Part shown: piece after piece, positions 2,918 through 32,846 of the stretch
How positions within the stretch are numbered: the stretch's first letter is position 1
How the letters are laid out: every line of letters starts with the position of its first letter
Source: Candidatus Omnitrophota bacterium
Lineage (GTDB): Bacteria > Omnitrophota > Gorgyraeia > Zapsychrales > Fredricksoniimonadaceae
Reading direction: 5' to 3'
DNA length: 64,000 bases
Assembly: GCA_028870995.1 (NCBI GenBank)
Contig: JAGWOI010000004.1
Span: 17,578-81,577 of the forward strand
The notes under the pieces: generated by a model
What the model saw: the letters and a program-made list of their open reading frames with translations, nothing else
Database searches by the model: none
Told to the model about the DNA's origin: nothing
Program-made: the position numbers and the translations under genes

Positions 2918-5900
2918 TTGCTTATTATGCGTCGGCGCCTAATTATTTTATTTCTTATCCTTACCTTTTCCGTTGAAACTTTAGGCGGGGATGCGGCCCG
3001 GGCCTGGTCGCAGTCTCAAGCTGAAAATGCCGTTATGCTTCCGCCGGGGACCTTGATGTCCATTTCTCCGGTTTTTTCTTTGCCCACCTTAAGAGGCATT
3101 GCCATTGACCCCCACGATCCTTTTAAAATCAATTTTGTCGTTGATAAGGCTGACCAGAATGACCAAATTCAAGGCCAGGTCAATTTGCTGGTGAAGTATT
3201 TTTTAAGCTTTTTGACCATCCCGGAAGAAGATCTTTGGGTCAATCTTTCCCCTTATGAAAAAGGCCGCATCATCACTCCGGATTTCGAGAACACCAATGC
3301 CGGCCGTGACATGTTGGTTGAGGATTACACGCTTAAACAGCTGGCATCCTCGTTGACCTACCCAGGCTCTGATTTGGGAAAAATTTTCTGGCAGAAAATC
3401 TTTCGACGTGCCAGGCAAGAGTATGGTTCCACCGCCATCCCGCTCAATACGTTTAATAAGGTTTGGGTTGTTCCTGACCGGGCCGTGGTGTATGAAGGCA
3501 ACGGCTCGGCCTTCATTGCCGAAAGTCATTTAAAGGTTTTGGTGGAAGAGGATTATTTAAGCATGCGCAAGCATGGCCAAATTGTGCCTAAGAATGACGG
3601 GACTGAAAATTTATCGTCCCAAATAATGCGTGAGCTTATCGTTCCTGAACTGGAACGTGAGGTCAATGAAGGGAAATCTTTTGCGCCTTTACGCCAGATG
3701 TTCAATTCCTTGATTCTTGCCATTTGGTTCAAGAAAAGATTAAGGGAAAACTTGATCGATAAAGTCTATGTAGACCAGGACAAAACTTTGGGCATCGCCC
3801 TGAATGAAAAGCAGGTCAAGGAAAGGATCTATGCCCAATATCTTAAAGCCTTCAAGAAAGGTGTCTATAATTTTATCCAGGAGGATTACGATGCCGCTTC
3901 GCACCAGGACGTACCCCGCAAATATTTTTCCGGCGGTTTCTCCTTTACCAATGCCGCTTCATGCATCAGCTACAGGCCGGCTTCCCAGATAGAGGAGTTG
4001 CCGGAAAACCAACGGCGGTTTAAAGGCGATTTTTCCATGTTCTCCATCGTTTTAAATCCGCTGGGCGTCTCCAAGGCAGCTTTGCTTAAGGCCGATGCCG
4101 CCCAGACCTCGTCTTCGGGAAGGATCAACAAGCTTTTGTATTCCTTTGTTTTTGCCGTTGGCGTGGCGGCGGGCGGATGGATGATGATGCCCGTTTCCCC
4201 GACCGCACCGCCTGCTGTCCCAAGTGTGGCTGCACCGGCGGCGACCAACACAGCTTTGCCTGCGGCAGCAGTTCCTATTCAAGTGACTACTGCCGACAAG
4301 GACGGTCAGATCGAATTTCATAATTTTTCGGACGATGTCGTTCCCATACCAGTGGAGGACCAGCTACTGGCTGAGGACGGCGGGGTGATAAGCGGCCTGG
4401 ACCCGGACAAGAAGGATTATAAGGCCGGGGACGTCATGTTTTCCCTTATAGATCCCCAAGTCAAGGGCCGTATTGAGCAATTGACCAAGGAGCTGGCCAT
4501 CCGCCAAGAAAAGCTTCAGGCTTTACAAAAATTGTTTCCCCAGCAGGCTTCCGGTGAGGAGGTAACGGCCGCGGGCCAGGCGGTGGATGAGATTTCGGCT
4601 GAACTGGCCCATGCCAGGCAGGCCTTGATCACCCGTGTCGCTGTCGCCCCGCATGACCTGAGGGTCAAGAATATGCTGGTGGCTAATGACATGTCCGTGG
4701 CCAAGGGAGGCGAGCTTTTGACTTATTTCGACAAGCAAAGGATCCAGGTGAACATCCAGGTCCCGCCTTCGTTGAACTATTTTTATGCGATCAAAGGGCT
4801 TAAAATAAACGGCCGGCCGGTTGAGAGCATGGTCAGTCTTGACTGGTCCCTGGACCCTTTGCAGAAAAACGCTCAACTCAGTATGATCATGGATGTGCCT
4901 TCCTCAATAGTCACCGGTCAGCCGGCCAAGCTGGAGTTTACTTTTTCAGCACCCGACACAGATCATCAACTCCTGGAGACGGTCAGCGGGCTCGACCAGA
5001 CGTTGGCCAAAGTCAACCGGGTGGAGGCCTATGTTTTAAGGGCGCCTACCGACGGCCCTGTGCAATTCCTGGTCCATGAAGGCCAGCAGGTGGCCAAAGG
5101 CCAGATAGTTGCTGTGGTGGAGAACAAGAACTATATTGAGGAATACCAGAACACCCGCTTGGGTCTCCGCAGCCTTGACATCCAGATAGGTTTGGGCAGG
5201 GACATCGACGGTACGCTGTTGATCAAGCGCGATGAACTGGATCGTTTGAAGGAGCAGAGGGCGGTCTTTTTGGAAAAGCTCAAGACCCTCGAGCAGGAAA
5301 TCCAACTCGATTATGTGCGCGCTCCAAACAGCGGCATTGTCATCAGCAGGGCTGCTTATCAATCGAAGGTATTTAAAGGTCAGGATGAGCTTTTGAGGAT
5401 AGGTACCGGTGAGACGATCGTTGGGAACATCAACGGTCCCAGGGATTTGATTTTGTTCCCCAAGGATTTGGATATTAAGGTCGGGGATCCGGTGGTGGTT
5501 GAAACCCCGCAAGGTGTCAGGCTGCCGGGCAAGGTGACAGCGGTCAATAAAAGTCCTTTTGATGCAGCCCGGGATTTAAGCGCCAATCAGGCCGTCGAGG
5601 TCATGGCCTTTGACCGGCAGAATATCCTGCAACCCAACCTGCCCGTAAATATCATTCTTCCCCAGCAAGGACAAAGGCAGCAAGTGCTGGTGGCATGGGA
5701 CACCGTGGCCCATGAAAACACCGCGGCTGTCCCGACACCGCCGGTCGTTGTCAGTCCCCTTGGGGCGCCCACTGTCGTTCTCCCAGCCCCTGCGGCCGCA
5801 ACACTGACTTCGACACCGGACTTTACCAATGGAGTGCCCCTGTTGGATCTGGCCGGCATTGACCGCCTGGTGGCAGGCAATGAGCTGGTCAGCGGCGCGC

Positions 5901-16867: not shown

Positions 16868-16868
16868 T

Positions 16869-16895
16869 AAAAAAAAGGGGACTGTCCCCTTTTTA
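16869..16895. terminator. Palindromic element AAAAAAAAGGGGACTGTCCCCTTTTT between pstB and phoU (bidirectional terminator/attenuator-like). Member of a repeated element family.
   Basis: Perfect palindrome GGGGAC-T-GTCCCC flanked by an A-run and a T-run. Related copies at 21751–21796 and 32147–32170. Confidence 0.5.
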
Positions 16896-17845: not shown

Positions 17846-19258
17846 ATGAAAAAATTATTAGTTGCTGCTTTATTCGTGGTATTAGCCTCACCGGCTTTCG
17901 CGGCTATTCAGAACGTGAAGGTCAGCGGCGATATCACCACCTCGTTTGTTCATCGCAATGATTTTACCTTGGGCACGCCGACAGGTGATCTGTATCTCGA
18001 CGGCCTCAAGAAGCAAAACGTGTTCCTGACCCAAACTCAGGTCCGCATTGACGCTGACTTAAGCGACAATGTGTCCGCCACAGTTGCGTTGCTCAATGAG
18101 CGCGCCTGGAACAACGGCAGCGGTCTTGCTACCCCTACAGATCAAAACGTTGAGATCTACCTGGCCAATGTGACCTTGCGTGAGTTCTTATATTCTCCGC
18201 TCACCTTGACCATCGGTCGTCAGATCTTCACCTACGGTAACGGCTTGGTTCTGGGCAACGGCCCGGCCAACCAGACCAACGGCGGTTTGCAGTTCATCGC
18301 CCAGGATCTAGGCTGGTCAACCGCTGAAGATGGTGTCAAGGCCACCTTGGATTATAAGCCTTTGACCATCGACCTGATCTACTTCAAGAATGATCAGAAG
18401 AACCTCACGGGCGTGATCCAAAATGGCGGTGCCTCAAGCGCCAACCAAAGCTCAGAAGTGTTCGGTTATAATGCCAATTACCAGCTGAGCGATCCCTGGA
18501 ATACGGTTATCGAACAGTATGTGTTCAGCCGTGTTGATGAAGCCGGTTACACGACCAACAACAAGAGCGATAAGCTCTATGTTCCCGGCTTACGTGCCAG
18601 CACCAATCCTATCAAAGGGTTGAACATCCAGGGCGAAATTGCCTGGCAATTGGGTGATAAGGTTGTTACAGCTAATGGTGGTCAGCAAGCCGAAGGCCGT
18701 GATGCCATGGCTATTCAAGCCCTGGCCAGCTATTCGCTGCCGGTGATGGTTAAATACAAACCGACGGTGAATGCTTCTTACACCTACTTCTCTGGTGATA
18801 AGATGTCAGCCACCAACGGCATCTCAGGCAACAAGGATGCCAGGCACTACAGCGCCTGGGATGTGTTCATGGGAGATTTTGGTGCCGGCACCATCTACAG
18901 CGCCATCTATCCCTTGACCAACATGAACATCCTTTCCGCCGGTGCTTCAGTCAGCCCGTTGGAAGATGTGACCACCAGCTTCACGTGGAGCAATCTATGG
19001 GCTGCGGACAGCTACTCTACCAACAATCCTCTGCAGATCTATCAGCCGACTGAGGGTACTGAGCTCAACACCCTGACTACCAAGAACAACGGTGCTAGAG
19101 GCTTGGGTAATGAGTATGATGTGAACCTGAACTATAACTACACTGAAGATGTTACCTTTGGTGTGAGTTTAGGCTGGTATGTTCCCGGTTCCGCGTTGGC
19201 CAATACCAACCGCGACACCGCGAGCCAAGCCATCGCAAGTTTGGGCGTGAAATTCTAA
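17846..19258 (+). CDS. Outer-membrane beta-barrel porin (second porin flanking the pst locus)
   Basis: Signal peptide (MKKLLVAALFVVLASPAFA). Alternating amphipathic beta-strand pattern. C-terminal …LGVKF with terminal Phe. Confidence 0.6.
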   Translation: MKKLLVAALFVVLASPAFAAIQNVKVSGDITTSFVHRNDFTLGTPTGDLYLDGLKKQNVFLTQTQVRIDADLSDNVSATVALLNERAWNNGSGLATPTDQNVEIYLANVTLREFLYSPLTLTIGRQIFTYGNGLVLGNGPANQTNGGLQFIAQDLGWSTAEDGVKATLDYKPLTIDLIYFKNDQKNLTGVIQNGGASSANQSSEVFGYNANYQLSDPWNTVIEQYVFSRVDEAGYTTNNKSDKLYVPGLRASTNPIKGLNIQGEIAWQLGDKVVTANGGQQAEGRDAMAIQALASYSLPVMVKYKPTVNASYTYFSGDKMSATNGISGNKDARHYSAWDVFMGDFGAGTIYSAIYPLTNMNILSAGASVSPLEDVTTSFTWSNLWAADSYSTNNPLQIYQPTEGTELNTLTTKNNGARGLGNEYDVNLNYNYTEDVTFGVSLGWYVPGSALANTNRDTASQAIASLGVKF

Positions 19259-19284: not shown

Positions 19285-19320
19285 AAAACCCCCGTTCGAT
19301 CCTTGAACGGGGGTTTTTTA
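19285..19320 (+). terminator. Rho-independent terminator
   Basis: AAAACCCCCGTTC-GATCCTT-GAACGGGGGTTTTTT hairpin plus a T-run directly after the porin stop codon. Confidence 0.8.
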
Positions 19321-19487: not shown

Positions 19488-20066
19488 ATGACCCGTGATG
19501 AGATATATGATCACCTTGCCAAGGTTTATTTAGGCAAGCGCGAAGGTGCATCGCCTAAAAAAAGTAAACCCAAAAAAATCAACCGCTCGCTGTTGGTGAT
19601 CAACGTGGTGATCACCTTGGTCATCGTGATTTCGGCGGTCTACGGGTTTACGGCTTTCCTGACGCGCCGCGGTGATTTGAAGTCGCAGGTTTTTTACGCG
19701 TTGAACAATGAGCCGATCCGCATTGCGTATGACCTTAATGACCCGTATCCGTCGACAAAGACATTTTCGGTCACGCTCCCGACCAAGGATGTGTCCAAAT
19801 ACAGCGCCTTGAACATTTCGCTGCGGGGCTTGGACGGGGCCTATCCGGGGATCGTGAAGGTGGTGGTCACCAACCAGAAGGACGAGCGGGGGACCTATTA
19901 TATCCAGAATGTGGGCTCAACCTGGCAGAAGGCCAGTATCCCCTTTGACAAATTGAATTTGACGGACTGGACGACCGTCACCAAGGTGTCCTTTGTCCTG
20001 GAAGCATGGAATGTGGATTTCCGTCGGGGAACGCTGTTGATCGACGGGGTCAGTTTCTCAAATTAA
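19488..20066 (+). CDS. Single-pass membrane protein with a C-terminal beta-rich extracytoplasmic domain; first gene of an operon with the ParA-like ATPase
   Basis: Basic cytoplasmic N-terminus (…SPKKSKPKKINRS), TM helix (LLVINVVITLVIVISAVYGF), then a ~130-aa domain. Stop codon is 14 nt before the ParA-like start. Confidence 0.5.
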   Translation: MTRDEIYDHLAKVYLGKREGASPKKSKPKKINRSLLVINVVITLVIVISAVYGFTAFLTRRGDLKSQVFYALNNEPIRIAYDLNDPYPSTKTFSVTLPTKDVSKYSALNISLRGLDGAYPGIVKVVVTNQKDERGTYYIQNVGSTWQKASIPFDKLNLTDWTTVTKVSFVLEAWNVDFRRGTLLIDGVSFSN

Positions 20067-20080
20067 GGAGACAGTTGTTT

Positions 20081-21256
20081 ATGAAAATCATTTCCATTGC
20101 CAACCAAAAAGGCGGGTGCGGTAAAACCACGACGGCCATCAACCTGGCCTCGACGCTGTCCTTCAACGGCCAGAAAACGCTTTTGATCGACCTCGATCCC
20201 CAGGCGCACGCGACCCTGGGTCTGAACGTCGAGGACCAGAACAGCCTTTACAACTGCATCTCCAAACTGACCCCGCATAAACTGAAGATCAAGGACATCA
20301 TAAAGCCGGTGGGCAAGAGCTTTGATATCGTGCCTTCCAACGTGTTGGTGGGCACCCTGGAACAGGAACTGGCCGATGAGATCGGCCGGGAACTTAAGCT
20401 GGTGGAGATTATCGATGAAATCAAGGGCCTTTATGACTATATTCTCATCGACTGCCCGCCCTCCCTGGGGTTTCTCACGGTCAACTCCATCCGCGCCAGC
20501 GATGAACTGATCATTCCGGTTGAGACCAGCCGTTTCTCCATGCAGGGGGTCGACCACCTGATGGACATCACCAATTTGATCCGCGAGAGGCTTGGCCATC
20601 CGGTCAAGCCCAAGGTGCTGATCACCATGTTCGACTCCCGCCTGCGGCATTCCTTTACCATGTTAAACAAGATGAAAGAGAAATTCAGCGGCATGCTCTT
20701 CGACACCATCGTGCATGTCAACGTCAAGCTTAAAGAGGCCGCGGTCATGGGCGAGGCGGTCATCCGCTACGACAAATACTGCCGCGGTTCCAAGGACTAT
20801 TTGAGCCTGGCCCGCGAAATCCTCACCGCCGACCGCCAGCCGATCGTGCCGGAAGTCAAGGTGACCAGTATGCCTACCGTGGCGGCGGTCCTGGAAGCCC
20901 TTCAAGAACCCAAGGAGGTCCAGGCGTCGGCGCCTGCCTCATACCAGCCTTCCGAACGCATGCAGGAATTGATCCAAAAGGAAACTCAGGAGCTCTTGAA
21001 GGCCACCACCTTTTCTCTGGCAGCGCCGGAGGCCAAATCGGTGTATGTGACCGGTTCCTTCAATGATTGGTCGCTGGACGAGAACTGCCGGATGGCCGGC
21101 CAGGACGGCCTCTGGACCCTGAAGGTCAGCCTCAAGCCGGGGACCTATAAATATCAGTTCATCGTCGACGGCAAATGGCAGGAGGATCCGGCCAACGCCA
21201 ACATGGAGCGCAATTCCTTCGGCGACATCAATTCCCTGATCGAGGTCAAGGCCTAA
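20081..21256 (+). CDS. ParA/MinD-family P-loop ATPase fused to a C-terminal CBM48 (AMPK-beta glycogen-binding-like) domain
   Basis: AAGGAG ribosome-binding site at 20065–20070 and ATG at 20081. Deviant Walker A KGGCGKTT. The C-terminus (VYVTGSFNDWSLDE…GTYKYQFIVDGKWQEDP) matches the CBM48 consensus (GSFNNW…Y.YKF.VDG.W). Confidence 0.8.
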   Translation: MKIISIANQKGGCGKTTTAINLASTLSFNGQKTLLIDLDPQAHATLGLNVEDQNSLYNCISKLTPHKLKIKDIIKPVGKSFDIVPSNVLVGTLEQELADEIGRELKLVEIIDEIKGLYDYILIDCPPSLGFLTVNSIRASDELIIPVETSRFSMQGVDHLMDITNLIRERLGHPVKPKVLITMFDSRLRHSFTMLNKMKEKFSGMLFDTIVHVNVKLKEAAVMGEAVIRYDKYCRGSKDYLSLAREILTADRQPIVPEVKVTSMPTVAAVLEALQEPKEVQASAPASYQPSERMQELIQKETQELLKATTFSLAAPEAKSVYVTGSFNDWSLDENCRMAGQDGLWTLKVSLKPGTYKYQFIVDGKWQEDPANANMERNSFGDINSLIEVKA

Positions 21257-21265
21257 AAGGGGACT

Positions 21266-21288
21266 GGCTCTTTTGAAGCGCTTCAAGA
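21266..21288 (+). terminator. Hairpin terminator after the ParA-like gene
   Basis: CTCTTTTGAAGCGCTTCAAGAG near-perfect palindrome, preceded by AAAAGGGGACTGGCTC, which is a degenerate copy of the GGGGACTGTCCCC element. Confidence 0.5.
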
Positions 21289-21295
21289 GTTCCTT

Positions 21296-21613
21296 ATGAA
21301 ATCCAATTTTTCAAAAGAGGATGTCAGCGACGGAAAAATGTATGCGGTCCTGGCCTACCTGTCCATCTTTTGCATCATCCCCCTCATCCTTAAGAAAAAC
21401 AATCCTTTTGTTTTAAATCACGGCCGGCAAGGCCTGGTGCTTTTCGTGGCCGAGGTGGCCACCCTGGTCATCAGCATTGTGGTGCCGTGGGCTTTCCGGC
21501 CTTTCCTGTTCATTCTGTTCGCCTTTTCTTTCTGGGGCATGGTCACGGCCATTCGCGGCCAGGTGGTCGAGCTGCCGGTAGTGGCCGGGATCGCCGAGAA
21601 AATTACAATATAG
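21296..21613 (+). CDS. Small integral membrane protein (DUF4870-like)
   Basis: 105 aa with two or three TM helices. N-terminal …MYAVLAYLSIFCIIPLI motif. Confidence 0.5.
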   Translation: MKSNFSKEDVSDGKMYAVLAYLSIFCIIPLILKKNNPFVLNHGRQGLVLFVAEVATLVISIVVPWAFRPFLFILFAFSFWGMVTAIRGQVVELPVVAGIAEKITI

Positions 21614-21615
21614 AT

Positions 21616-22137
21616 ATGTTCCATAAAATCGTTGATGTCCTCAAAGAGGTCTTTTGGATCAAGCCTTCCCGGAAGAAACCCAAGACCGCCCGGCGTAAGA
21701 GCGCCAAAAGGCCTGCTGTTAAAAAAAAGGCGCTCAGGCCAAAACCCAAGAAAAAGGGGACAGTCCCCTTGAAAAAAAGGGGACAGTCCCCTTTTTCTGA
21801 AAAGCCGGCGGCGGCCAAGCCGGTCAAACCCAGGCCGGCGCCTAAAGCTGCCGTCAAAGGTGCCAAGTCTTCTGCCAGGGCCATTGATCCTTCCTTGACC
21901 GAAGTAGGGAACATCACGCATTATTTCGACCGCATTAAGGTTTGTGTGGTCCAGGTGACCTTCGGAACCGTTTTAATAGGGGACAAGTTGACCGTTTTGG
22001 GACCGAAGACAAAGTTCATTCAAAAAGTGTGGTCCATGCAAATTGAAAGTGAAGATGTAAAAGTTGCTAAGAAAGGTCAATTAATAGGGTTGAAGGTTGA
22101 TAAAGTTGTTTCTGTAGGCGACAAGGTTTACAAATGA
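21616..22137 (+). CDS. Lys/Pro/Ala-rich histone-H1-like N-terminal region fused to a C-terminal EF-Tu-domain-2-like beta-barrel. Coding status of the basic region is uncertain because it contains two copies of a palindromic repeat.
   Basis: ATG at 21616. Basic tract: KKPKTARRKSAKRPAVKKKALRPKPKKKGTVPLKKRGQSPFSEKPAAAKPVKPRPAPKAAVKGAK. C-terminus (GNITHYFDRIKVCVVQVTFGTVLIGDKLTVLG…VAKKGQLIGLKVDKVVSVGDKVYK) resembles the translation-factor beta-barrel domain. Confidence 0.45.
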   Translation: MFHKIVDVLKEVFWIKPSRKKPKTARRKSAKRPAVKKKALRPKPKKKGTVPLKKRGQSPFSEKPAAAKPVKPRPAPKAAVKGAKSSARAIDPSLTEVGNITHYFDRIKVCVVQVTFGTVLIGDKLTVLGPKTKFIQKVWSMQIESEDVKVAKKGQLIGLKVDKVVSVGDKVYK

Positions 22138-22158: not shown

Positions 22159-22353
22159 ATGATATATTTAATTACGGCTATGAATTCCAAAGGGCAAAAT
22201 ATCATCGAGTATATCCTGATGGTGACCGCAGTCTTGCTGGTTTGTATCTACTTTTTTACAGCCGGCCCCATGAAGCAAAGCGTTAACACCGCCCTCAACA
22301 CCATGGTCAATGAGATCCAAAACATCAACAGCCAGATCAACTTCAGCCCCTAA
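22159..22353 (+). CDS. flp: Flp-family (type IVb / Tad) prepilin
   Basis: 64 aa with a short leader then the G/QNIIEY motif, the Flp G-XXXX-EY prepilin-peptidase processing signature, followed by a hydrophobic helix (ILMVTAVLLVCIYFF). Confidence 0.6.
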   Translation: MIYLITAMNSKGQNIIEYILMVTAVLLVCIYFFTAGPMKQSVNTALNTMVNEIQNINSQINFSP

Positions 22354-23452: not shown

Positions 23453-23481
23453 TTGACTAGGTTGCGCAATCCAGCTATAAT
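23453..23481 (+). promoter_or_regulatory. Sigma70-type promoter for rpsO-pnp (TTGACT-17-TATAAT)
   Basis: Consensus hexamers with a 17-bp spacer, about 70 nt upstream of the rpsO start. Confidence 0.65.
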
Positions 23482-31386: not shown

Positions 31387-32133
31387 ATGGAAAGCAGCAA
31401 TCCGACGTTAAATGAAAGAGCTTTTGGTGCCGCACGCGTAGGCATTGGCGAGCCGGCCATGACCATCCAGGGGACGGTTAATAAGACCTTGATTCTCCTA
31501 GGGATTTTGATGGCCTGCGCCATGTGGACTTGGAGTCAGGCTTATAATCCGGCCAGCCAGGGCCTGTTAAGCGGGGTATTTTTCGTGTCCATGATCGGCG
31601 GTCTTATATTGGCCGTGGCCACTTCTTTTAAACCCAAATGGTCGCCTATCACCGCTCCTTTGTATGCGGCATGCGAAGGCCTGCTTTTAGGGGTGCTTTC
31701 AGCTTATTTCGAAGCGCGTTATCCAGGCATTGTTATGCAGGCCGTGGGCCTGACCTTTGCCGTGACCTTAGCCATGCTCATGGGCTATAAATCAGGATGG
31801 CTTCAGGCCACACCTGGTTTGCGCAAGGGGTTGTTTATCGCCATGGGCGGTTTGATGATCTTTTATGTGGTCGTCTGGATCGCCTCCTTTTTCGGCATCC
31901 ACCCGCCGGGCTTCATCAATGGCGGCGGTCCCTTGGGCATCGCCTTCAGCTTGTTCGTGGTGGGCATTGCGGCTTTGTCCCTGGTTCTGGATTTCGATCT
32001 TATCGAGTCCGCCTGCCGCGAAGGCCTGGAAAGGTACATGGAATGGTATGGTGCCTTTGCCCTGATGGTGACCTTGATCTGGCTTTACATGGAAATCCTG
32101 CGCCTTTTGTCCAAACTCAACCGCAGGGATTAA
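31387..32133 (+). CDS. Bax-inhibitor-1/YccA family membrane protein
   Basis: Seven predicted TM helices. BI-1-like layout with a cytoplasmic N-terminus. Confidence 0.55.
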   Translation: MESSNPTLNERAFGAARVGIGEPAMTIQGTVNKTLILLGILMACAMWTWSQAYNPASQGLLSGVFFVSMIGGLILAVATSFKPKWSPITAPLYAACEGLLLGVLSAYFEARYPGIVMQAVGLTFAVTLAMLMGYKSGWLQATPGLRKGLFIAMGGLMIFYVVVWIASFFGIHPPGFINGGGPLGIAFSLFVVGIAALSLVLDFDLIESACREGLERYMEWYGAFALMVTLIWLYMEILRLLSKLNRRD

Positions 32134-32146
32134 GAATCGCACAGTC

Positions 32147-32170
32147 AAAAAAGGGGACTGTCCCTTTTTT
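32147..32170. terminator. Bidirectional terminator between convergent genes; copy of the GGGGACTGTCCC palindromic element
   Basis: AAAAAAGGGGACTGTCCCTTTTTT. Confidence 0.6.
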
Positions 32171-32180
32171 GTTCCTATTT

Positions 32181-32846
32181 TTAGAGTTTCTTTTTGTTTA
32201 ATTCGTAGATGACATCGAGGATGATAAGCCCCGCGGCAATGAGGATCAAGGTCCAGGCATTATCATTGAGGGCTTTATGCTCGATGAACAGGCGGGTCTT
32301 CAGGTAAAAAACCACCAGCAGGATAAAAACCCAGAAAGCAGGTTTATGCTCCTTGCTTTTAAGCAGCCTGTTCAGGCTGAAAGGCCACTTTTCCCCCTTG
32401 GTATAAGGGATGAGGCTGGGAAGCATGGCCGGCACATGCCGGCAATAGTCGATATAGGCGTCCTTGAATTTGGCGGCGAGCATACCTTGTTCACCGTTGA
32501 TGGTGCGGTAGTATTGAAAGCTTAAGGCTAATAAAAGAAGGAGGCCCGCCGCGTGCTCGATCACCGGCGGGTTGCTTTTAAGGACCAGCATAAATCCAGC
32601 GGCGATCAGGAAGGTGCCGACATACAAGGGGTTGCGTACGAACGCGTAAGGTCCTGACGTGGTCAGCTTGTCGTTCTTGATGGCATAACCGTTGGACCAC
32701 AGGCGCAGCACGGTACCGGCGATGATAAAGCCTATGCCTGTTTTAAGGGAGGCTTCATCCAGCCAGCAGAAAAACAGAAAGAAAAAACCAAAAGGATAAA
32801 TAACGGCAAAACGGGGTTTTAGCCAGCGTTCCATGCGTTGATTCAT
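32181..32846 (-). CDS. Isoprenylcysteine carboxyl methyltransferase / phospholipid methyltransferase family membrane protein
   Basis: Multi-TM protein with the …GPYAFVRNPLYVG… motif typical of ICMT/PEMT-family methyltransferases. Confidence 0.65.
   Translation of the reverse strand: MNQRMERWLKPRFAVIYPFGFFFLFFCWLDEASLKTGIGFIIAGTVLRLWSNGYAIKNDKLTTSGPYAFVRNPLYVGTFLIAAGFMLVLKSNPPVIEHAAGLLLLLALSFQYYRTINGEQGMLAAKFKDAYIDYCRHVPAMLPSLIPYTKGEKWPFSLNRLLKSKEHKPAFWVFILLVVFYLKTRLFIEHKALNDNAWTLILIAAGLIILDVIYELNKKKL

Follow-up and report, generated by a model that had tools for sequence, protein, structure and literature searches.

The gene at 21616..22137 (+) of a 64,000-nt stretch of Candidatus Omnitrophota DNA (contig JAGWOI010000004.1, positions 17,578 to 81,577; the whole stretch is termed the window below) encodes a protein of 173 residues, in which a short conserved N-terminal segment is followed by a long basic linker and a small beta-barrel. 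Our overall best explanation, to which we assign a probability of about 0.65, is that this is a translated gene for a basic-tailed barrel, that an in-frame doublet of repetitive extragenic palindromic (REP) elements is tolerated within its linker, and that the product may act as a partner of a ParA-type ATPase encoded in the same gene cassette. The gene illustrates how a small mobile palindrome can be incorporated into a protein and then decay into ordinary linker sequence.

Coding sequence and modular architecture of the 173-residue protein

The open reading frame (ORF) runs from an ATG at 21616 to a stop codon at 22135-22137, and its product is identical to KGK03_02045, a protein deposited at NCBI from a metagenome-assembled genome (MAG) of a Candidatus Omnitrophica bacterium. 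Only 2 nt separate the ATG from the stop codon of the upstream gene (21296-21613). Three parts can be distinguished, all on the forward strand. The N-terminal segment MFHKIVDVLKEVFWIK (residues 1-16, 21616..21663) contains invariant residues and a predicted helix over residues 2-12, with a predicted local distance difference test (pLDDT) score of ~81. The linker (residues 17-89, 21664..21882) is polybasic, rich in Lys, Arg, Pro and Ala, hypervariable in both length and sequence, and predicted to be disordered. The C-terminal barrel (residues 90-173, 21883..22134) was assigned to the fold of the translation-protein and U32 C-terminal domains by AlphaFold2 (AF2) modelling, Foldseek and sub-threshold Pfam matches.

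A search of 5.8 billion proteins yielded 292 homologues of the whole protein. Of the 120 best, 118 align over the entire query (100%) within one ORF, although they vary between 123 and 175 residues in length. In an alignment of 29 homologues, positions M1, L9, K10, E11, F13, W14 and K16 are invariant and the C-terminal 84 residues nearly so; the linker is free in length and sequence. Every length difference in a codon alignment of five orthologous genes keeps the reading frame. When the barrel only was searched against 1.84 billion cluster representatives, 1,558 clusters (50% identity, E ≤0.001) were recovered. An N-terminal extension of at least 30 residues is present in 138 of the 150 best representatives (median 96 residues; on average 36% Lys plus Arg and 3% Asp plus Glu), and most of the extended representatives, distant members included, begin with the pattern M.(L/F).K.(L/I)..(L/F)KK.F.

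These data bear on an alternative raised in the original prediction, namely that the first ~90 codons are untranslated. On that account they would form a leader or intergenic region, with TTG 21896, in the same frame, as the start of a barrel-only gene and with the two palindromes found in the linker region (see below) as terminators of the upstream operon. The palindromes do resemble intrinsic terminators, and the other two copies in the window occupy terminator positions; moreover, barrel-only proteins of 80-105 residues exist (9 of the 150 representatives). The basic region is nevertheless best regarded as translated, because an untranslated leader would keep neither the frame nor a conserved start peptide, whereas here the N-terminal segment is nearly invariant, the frame is maintained across diverse linker lengths in the great majority of homologues and representatives, differences between orthologues respect codons, and the ATG directly follows the upstream stop codon. 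The full-length homologues and invariant N-terminal residues thus refute the leader alternative, which we consider extremely improbable; the gene is almost certainly real, translated from ATG 21616 and built of the three parts described.

The composition of the linker (20 Lys, 8 Arg, 12 Pro, 13 Ala, 1 Glu and no Asp) corresponds to 38% Lys plus Arg and 73% Lys, Arg, Pro and Ala combined, with a net charge of +27 and an isoelectric point of 12. The basic, H1-like character that had been proposed for this region is therefore borne out. The proposed likeness to histone H1 and chlamydial Hc1 holds for composition and fails for homology, with no Pfam match to either. The model of the linker has no secondary structure, and its pLDDT per 10 residues falls from ~73 to 46, mostly lying between 52 and 68. 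In distant family members the linkers are rich in Arg, Ser and Lys, not in Pro and Ala. Within the coding sequence, A runs of 8 (21721-21728) and 7 (21772-21778) nucleotides might allow slippage during transcription or translation. We considered, and rejected as unsupported, a programmed -1 frameshift at the second run (G AAA AAA AGG, 21771-21780), with termination at the TGA at 21797-21799: the heptamer does not have the form X XXY YYZ, no spacer precedes the hairpin, and the site is missing from most homologues.

The barrel was modelled by AF2 from an alignment of 92 diverse sequences, with a pLDDT of 95.8; this alignment was used instead of one of 29 close homologues, for which the pLDDT of the barrel was <50. 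In the PDB, Foldseek matched the barrel best to the C-terminal domain of a U32 peptidase from Geobacillus, represented by 4he5 and 4he6 (template modelling (TM) score 0.86-0.90, root-mean-square deviation 1.0 Å, ~20% identity), followed by IF2, Pyrococcus Pbp11, domain 2 of EF-Tu, SelB and eIF5B. Foldseek assigned a probability of 1.00 to the barrels of IF2, EF-Tu, SelB and eIF5B (TMq 0.54-0.79), and a profile search of solved structures gave weak matches to those of eEFSec and eIF5B. In Pfam, GTP_EFTU_D4 (PF14578; E 0.0023, 18.3 bits against a cut-off of 23.8) and GTP_EFTU_D2 (PF03144; E 0.0047, 17.8 bits against a cut-off of 30.3) match below threshold, and these two EF-Tu barrel families are the only ones found at E ≤0.1, with no linker histone, Hc1 or U32 C-terminal match. 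The EF-Tu-domain-2-like barrel suggested by the original prediction is thus supported at the superfamily level, by Foldseek and more weakly by the structure-profile search, but its closest structural counterpart is the U32 peptidase C-terminal domain. Two double-barrel relatives that lack the tail (P0271 and P0136) pass the threshold of Peptidase_U32_C (PF16325).

Several relatives carry the barrel in other settings. One double-barrel relative has neighbours of archaeal type, RadA among them, in its genome, a neighbourhood that is uninformative. Three proteins (P0141, P0266 and P0204) have a TIR_2 domain at the N-terminus and, after it, two barrels of the same family, so that the barrel has been reused as a module beside an immune-type signalling domain. 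In P0267 the barrel is fused to a C-terminal segment which, by eye, is like the Class-III-signal/Flp-pilin-like protein encoded downstream in the window (22159-22353); this fusion is either genuine or a product of read-through or assembly error.

An in-frame palindrome doublet in the linker

The exact 20-mer AAAAAGGGGACAGTCCCCTT occurs at 21751-21770 and again at 21774-21793, with 13-nt cores at 21756-21768 and 21779-21791. Repeat scanning, folding and orthologue alignment delimit the doublet to 21749..21798 and characterize it as REP-type, resembling the hairpin-forming REP doublets known as REPINs. Two palindromes had originally been predicted within the basic region, and both are present; the span then given for the second, 21772-21796, represents the second copy plus its A and T runs. 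They are indeed read in different frames: AAG GGG ACA GTC CCC TTG in the first copy codes for KGTVPL, and AGG GGA CAG TCC CCT TTT in the second for RGQSPF. The tryptic peptides expected from the region are GTVPLK and GQSPFSEKPAAAK. By inspection, none of the six frames through the core and its flanking A and T runs contains a stop codon, and the encoded peptide is K-G-(T/Q/D)-(V/S)-P-(L/F).

The two copies pair with each other through 22-nt arms that are 95% complementary and 6 nt apart. The RNA of the doublet has a minimum free energy of -38 kcal/mol (z = -6.4), and UUUUUCU follows the hairpin; the whole looks like a terminator, yet it lies 133-182 nt inside a conserved ORF. In Rfam, nothing above the gathering score was found at 21748-21798, only generic hairpin matches.

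With up to one mismatch, the core GGGGAC(A/T)GTCCCC is found at four sites in the window (16877, 21756, 21779 and 32153). These constitute seven strand matches, compared to 0.13 expected, a number reached by none of 100 shuffles; allowing two mismatches adds no further copy in the 64 kb. The single copy at 16868..16895 lies between the stop codon of pstB and the ribosome-binding site of phoU. It is a clean insertion of ~27 nt relative to two related loci, L136 and L001, in which the stop codon runs straight into the ribosome-binding site. A copy with one mismatch at 32147..32171 occupies a terminator position between two convergent genes (31387-32133, +; 32181-32846, -). In addition, the sequence TAAAAGGGGACTGGCTCTTT at 21254-21273, immediately after the stop codon of the ParA-type ATPase gene, has 75% identity to the 20-mer and could represent either a degenerate copy or a weak terminator.

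Two of the four window copies are thus inside an ORF, and in the Omnitrophota loci that we read most copies lie within long open frames. The ATPase encoded upstream of the 173-residue protein carries a C-terminal carbohydrate-binding module (CBM), and one in-frame palindrome copy is present in the linker between the ATPase and CBM48 in L001 (4264) and L003 (4286); the corresponding linker in the window has none. In L001 an identical 27-mer, TGAAAAGCAGGGGACAGTCCCCTTCAA, occurs both in this linker and in the orthologue of the 173-residue gene. The gene for the tRNA methylthiotransferase MiaB in L035 (Omnitrophota MAG JAUSED01; 4052-5380, +) contains three in-frame doublets, coding for KMGTVPKRRGQSPFF twice and KRGQSPKKGDSPLFF once, all three of them inserted with respect to the solved structure of Bacteroides MiaB (7mjz). 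Similar doublets are found in L035, L051, L003 and many further loci. Because MiaB, a housekeeping enzyme, is interrupted three times in another Omnitrophota genome, in-frame REPs may be common in these uncultivated bacteria, where they will confuse gene calling and terminator prediction.

The history of the doublet was followed among orthologues, and the comparison revealed a doublet that is intact in the window, shared with L001 and decayed in L136, a different one in L003 and L005 and none in L006. The doublet with the spacer TTGAAAA(A/G)(A/C)A is common to the window, L001 and L136, in the same place and the same frames. In L136, the closest relative (78-83% nucleotide identity over the region), the cores have become GGGGGCGGTCCCT and GGGGACGGCCCGC, with 6 changes in 26 bases, and the encoded peptide KGAVPLKSRGRPA is still in frame. 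This rate of change is about that of the general divergence (17-22%), and the doublet is therefore unconstrained in the L136 lineage. In L003 and L005 the spacer is AAAAT and the second copy has decayed; L003 has further duplicated the doublet 66 bp downstream. Peptides of the type G(T/D/Q/L)(V/S/C)P were found in only 6 of the 270 family proteins fetched.

Since decay in L136 proceeds at about the general divergence and so few of the fetched proteins contain the palindrome peptide, the doublet looks tolerated rather than recruited. The notion of a palindromic element domesticated twice must be modified accordingly: a mobile, terminator-like palindrome does lie inside translated sequence, but "domesticated" is too strong for an element with this pattern of decay and sporadic occurrence, and one REPIN-like doublet, common to the three orthologues, reads better than two separate insertions. 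We propose that the doublet would have been inserted in an ancestor of the window genome, L136 and L001. An in-frame copy may survive selection because it contains no stop in any frame and its K-G-x-x-P coding fits the linker; being harmless, it would have persisted in the Lys/Pro-rich disordered segment and then decayed slowly.

The comparison with L001 weighs against simple tolerance. Between the window and this distant locus the cores keep 25 of 26 bases, although the same codon is used at only 55 of 117 identical residues (47%); retention in L001 may reflect renewal from other active copies there, or a selected function. The doublet might accordingly be kept for a role in mRNA or DNA, as an intragenic terminator that fires when translation is poor, as a double-stranded target of RNase III (22 bp), or as a ribosome pause that tunes the output of the barrel. 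Besides the near-identity of the cores in the face of synonymous divergence, this idea draws on the high stability of the hairpin with its trailing UUUUUCU and on the position of the first core, which is at the same aligned place in four of five orthologues. The shared position is weak evidence, as the alignment of the low-complexity linker is guided by the motif itself. The rarity of palindrome-encoded peptides in the family, the loss of both palindromes in the closest relative and the presence of the same element in unrelated genes (MiaB and the ParA-CBM linker) and intergenic sites all argue for tolerance, and we regard a selected nucleic-acid role as quite unlikely.

As to the identity of the element, a scan of one genome per species for the 15-mer AGGGGACAGTCCCCT gave at least 120 loci, from which copy numbers per phylum are not comparable. 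The matches listed come from Coriobacteriia, Planctomycetota, Myxococcota, Acidobacteriota, Gammaproteobacteria, Nitrospira, Patescibacteria, Omnitrophota and others. In nearly every match listed (at least 10 phyla) the 13-mer GGGGAC(A/T)GTCCCC forms the apex of a larger palindrome, with outer arms that vary between sites. Many of these matches are doublets or arrays, the planctomycetal locus L082 having 10 copies in 3 kb.

In four of the loci, genes for REP-associated tyrosine transposases (RAYTs) are flanked on both sides by GGGGACWGTCCCC. Three are planctomycetal (L082, 3118-3750; L123, 455-1075; L010, 3309-3839) and one is from Nitrospira (L017, 2056-2649); all four are on the reverse strand. 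Their best NCBIfam match is the REP-associated tyrosine transposase family (REP_Tyr_transpos), with E values of 1e-18 to 2e-22; in Pfam, the L082 gene also matches Y1_Tnp (E 3e-15). A repeat on both flanks of a RAYT gene is the defining REP-RAYT arrangement (PMC3116915, PMC3337134). In the Patescibacteria locus L055 the 13-mer lies on one side of a RAYT gene identified by tblastn only. Three RAYT homologues (L133-L135) picked independently of the palindrome have an A run and a GGGGAC head just upstream, with a different continuation; this check gives partial support and points to GGGGAC as the REP head conserved in this RAYT clade. Because the core flanks RAYT genes in other phyla, there is strong support for the palindrome being small mobile DNA of a REP family with a GGGGAC head, and it is quite probable that the doublet in the 173-residue gene is a REP-type in-frame insertion.

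Four observations count against this assignment. The 64-kb window contains no RAYT gene; no Omnitrophota RAYT carrying the palindrome was found, and the 120 best RAYT homologues include no protein named as Omnitrophota; the one Omnitrophota RAYT seen (L129, 2237-2836) has different REPs, GGTAGCACCTGCCTTCT...; and the units, which read (A)nGGGGACWGTCCCC(T)n, are without the GTAG or CGTC tag of the described REP superfamilies (PMC3733652). A full-text literature search for the palindrome sequence returned only unrelated eukaryotic primers.

It is consequently conceivable that the palindrome is a terminator hairpin which has spread here without a RAYT, through template switching, gene conversion or some unknown element. 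The absence of a suitable RAYT from the window and from the Omnitrophota sequences found would be explained, and a two-way terminator would look just like such a GC-rich palindrome with an A run on one side and a T run on the other. We nonetheless judge this to be unlikely in view of the RAYT genes of four MAGs from two phyla that have the exact 13-mer on either flank, the presence and absence of copies between relatives, the identical 27-mers at different sites, and the doublets and arrays with the same core in many phyla. The RAYT link explains only partly why the same apex recurs so widely. The GGGGAC-headed REP family and its cross-phylum spread may be new, as may the frequent in-frame position in Omnitrophota and the use of the element as linker material.

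Protein family, gene cassette and possible function

The 173-residue protein belongs to a large, uncharacterised family, all members of which that bear an organism name come from Candidatus Omnitrophica or Omnitrophota. No family in Pfam, NCBIfam, PHROGs or PADLOC describes it, the sole NCBIfam match being spurious, and PADLOC and PHROGs gave no match for the small neighbouring proteins either.

Nine loci were compared, the window included, some of them (P0265 and P0150) with barrels only ~55-62% identical. The 173-residue gene is the last member of a conserved five-gene cassette. Directly upstream of it, in all nine loci, is a gene for a membrane protein of 105-108 residues, preceded by one for a ParA/Soj-type ATPase with an AMPK1_CBM/CBM48 module and, before this, by a gene for a protein of 190-192 residues. 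A gene for an Alginate_exp outer-membrane barrel is found ahead of the latter in every locus except L006, where the sequence is too short. Downstream of the cassette the genes vary among the nine loci.

In the window all members are encoded on the forward strand. The Alginate_exp-type barrel (17846..19258) is followed by a 192-residue protein (19488..20066) that has no family match and, as read from its sequence, one membrane-spanning segment. The ATPase (20081..21256; AAA_31, E 6e-52) has the deviant Walker A motif KGGCGKT and a C-terminal AMPK1_CBM/CBM48 module (AMPK1_CBM, E 2e-16), and the 105-residue membrane protein (21296..21613) has orthologues that weakly match MamF_MmsF (PF09685). A strong, unrelated terminator hairpin (19285-19317; 15 pairs, -22.9 kcal/mol) follows the Alginate_exp gene, and a near-consensus promoter-like site, TTGACT-17-TATAAT, is found at 23453-23481 ahead of rpsO. 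In L129 the RAYT gene mentioned above is inserted inside the cassette, between the outer-membrane barrel gene and the 190-residue protein gene.

This fixed gene neighbourhood is the sole evidence on function. Our best guess is that the protein would probably be a polyanion-binding partner or adaptor of the ParA-like ATPase, the most economical proposal because the conserved cassette holds a ParA-type ATPase with a glycogen-binding module; the functional link to the ATPase itself is tentative. The conserved peptide at the N-terminus would interact with the ATPase or with the membrane protein, and the polybasic linker would bind a polyanion non-specifically, be it nucleoid DNA, RNA or polyphosphate, with acidic lipids as a further candidate. 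The barrel may bind cargo or RNA. Two points speak against this proposal: one gene separates the ATPase gene from that of its supposed partner, and the hydrophobic moment of residues 2-16 (0.385) is not significant, being equalled by 20% of shuffles. We take the N-terminus to resemble membrane-targeting peptides of the MinE type, a resemblance to which the hydrophobic moment lends no significant support, and for this reason a membrane-targeting amphipathic helix is not claimed.

Alternatively, the protein could be a nucleoid protein akin to histone H1 or Hc1 that compacts or coats DNA independently of the ATPase. Its linker, with 73% Lys, Arg, Pro and Ala and a net charge of +27, is like the DNA- or polyphosphate-binding tails of AlgP, PhaF and PhaM (PMC9239181, PMC13052382). 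The likeness to linker histones and Hc1 is, however, compositional, with no Pfam match, and distant members replace Pro and Ala with an Arg/Ser/Lys-rich linker. The conserved N-terminal segment, the conserved barrel and the neighbourhood found in nine of nine loci suggest a more specific role, and we consider a general nucleoid function unlikely.

An accessory factor of translation or RNA metabolism, binding tRNA or rRNA through its barrel and basic tail, appears rather improbable. The automatic name given by JGI, "translation initiation factor IF-2", is in line with such a factor, as are the fold matches to IF2, EF-Tu, SelB and the tRNA-binding stand-alone barrel Pbp11 (PMC9540759) and the presence of rpsO and pnp downstream. 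The protein lacks a GTPase domain, its Pfam scores are sub-threshold, and its best structural match is the U32 C-terminal domain. Furthermore, the rpsO-pnp neighbourhood is not kept in the distant members L127, L128 and L005, and a promoter-like site at 23453 serves rpsO separately.

The ATPase-partner proposal can be extended, in a form that is speculative and on the whole unlikely, to a single joint reading. The protein would then be the missing ParB- or McdB-like partner in a phylum-wide Omnitrophota positioning system in which the glycogen-binding module is part of the ATPase itself. Through its linker the protein would anchor this system to the nucleoid or to some other polyanion. The linker would also grow by in-frame capture of REP doublets from a GGGGAC REP/RAYT family that may be undescribed, and mobile palindromes would thereby provide building material for disordered parts of proteins. 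The ParA-CBM48 cassette could serve in the positioning of granules or of envelope components, and it is not known to have been described as such. To our knowledge, the fixed association of this family with a ParA-CBM48 ATPase has likewise not been described. The constant position of the family beside this ATPase provides a specific candidate, amenable to testing, for a positioning system of uncultured bacteria.

Comparison with known systems

ParA-type ATPases act with partner proteins, among which McdB has a positively charged, disordered N-terminus (PMC13052382). Like the partners of ParA and MinD, such as McdB, MinE and ParB with its N-terminal peptide (PMC13052382, PMC7333895), the 173-residue protein is small, is encoded in the cluster of the ATPase, and has a conserved, positively charged N-terminal region with disorder after it. 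It differs from them in the gene that lies between it and the ATPase, in having an ATPase with a putative cargo module (CBM48) of its own, and in the lack of sequence similarity.

H1-like tails tether or space storage granules in AlgP, PhaF and PhaM (PMC9239181, PMC13052382). As in these proteins and in Hc1/Hc2, a long, Lys/Pro/Ala-rich, basic and disordered segment is joined here to a second module. Unlike them, the 173-residue protein shares no homology or common module with the group, and its tail is placed between a conserved N-terminal segment and a barrel.

The barrel has the same small fold as the C-terminal domain of U32 peptidases (4he5/4he6; PF16325), with TM scores of 0.86-0.90. In contrast to U32 peptidases and EF-Tu-type proteins, it stands alone, preceded by a basic tail and accompanied by neither a U32 catalytic nor a GTPase domain, and the protein itself remains below the Pfam thresholds of PF16325 and the EF-Tu families. 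Pbp11 is a stand-alone barrel of the same fold that binds tRNA (PMC9540759).

REPs and REPINs are already known, as are intragenic REPs (PMC3733652) and the in-frame Rickettsia palindromic elements (RPEs; PMC10969869). In this light the original prediction overstated the case in holding that either outcome, palindromes in translated sequence or an untranslated start of the gene, is unusual, since intragenic REPs had been reported (PMC3733652). The palindrome resembles REPs and REPINs in being short and repeated beyond chance, in a location mostly downstream of genes, in often forming doublets that fold into a longer hairpin, in its differing presence between relatives, and in a core that flanks RAYT genes in other phyla. 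Its head is GGGGAC instead of the GTAG or CGTC of described REPs, and RAYT genes flanked by the core are known here from other phyla only. It also differs in its low copy number in the window (four per 64 kb) and in the position of most copies within long open frames in the Omnitrophota loci that we read. RPEs are in-frame selfish DNA within genes, housekeeping genes included, and are tolerated in permissive regions (PMC10969869). The element described here is likewise palindromic and in frame, and adds a peptide to a permissive region; compared to the Rickettsia-specific RPEs of ~150 bp, it is much shorter, at ~25 nt per copy and ~50 nt per doublet, and has a core that occurs across many phyla.

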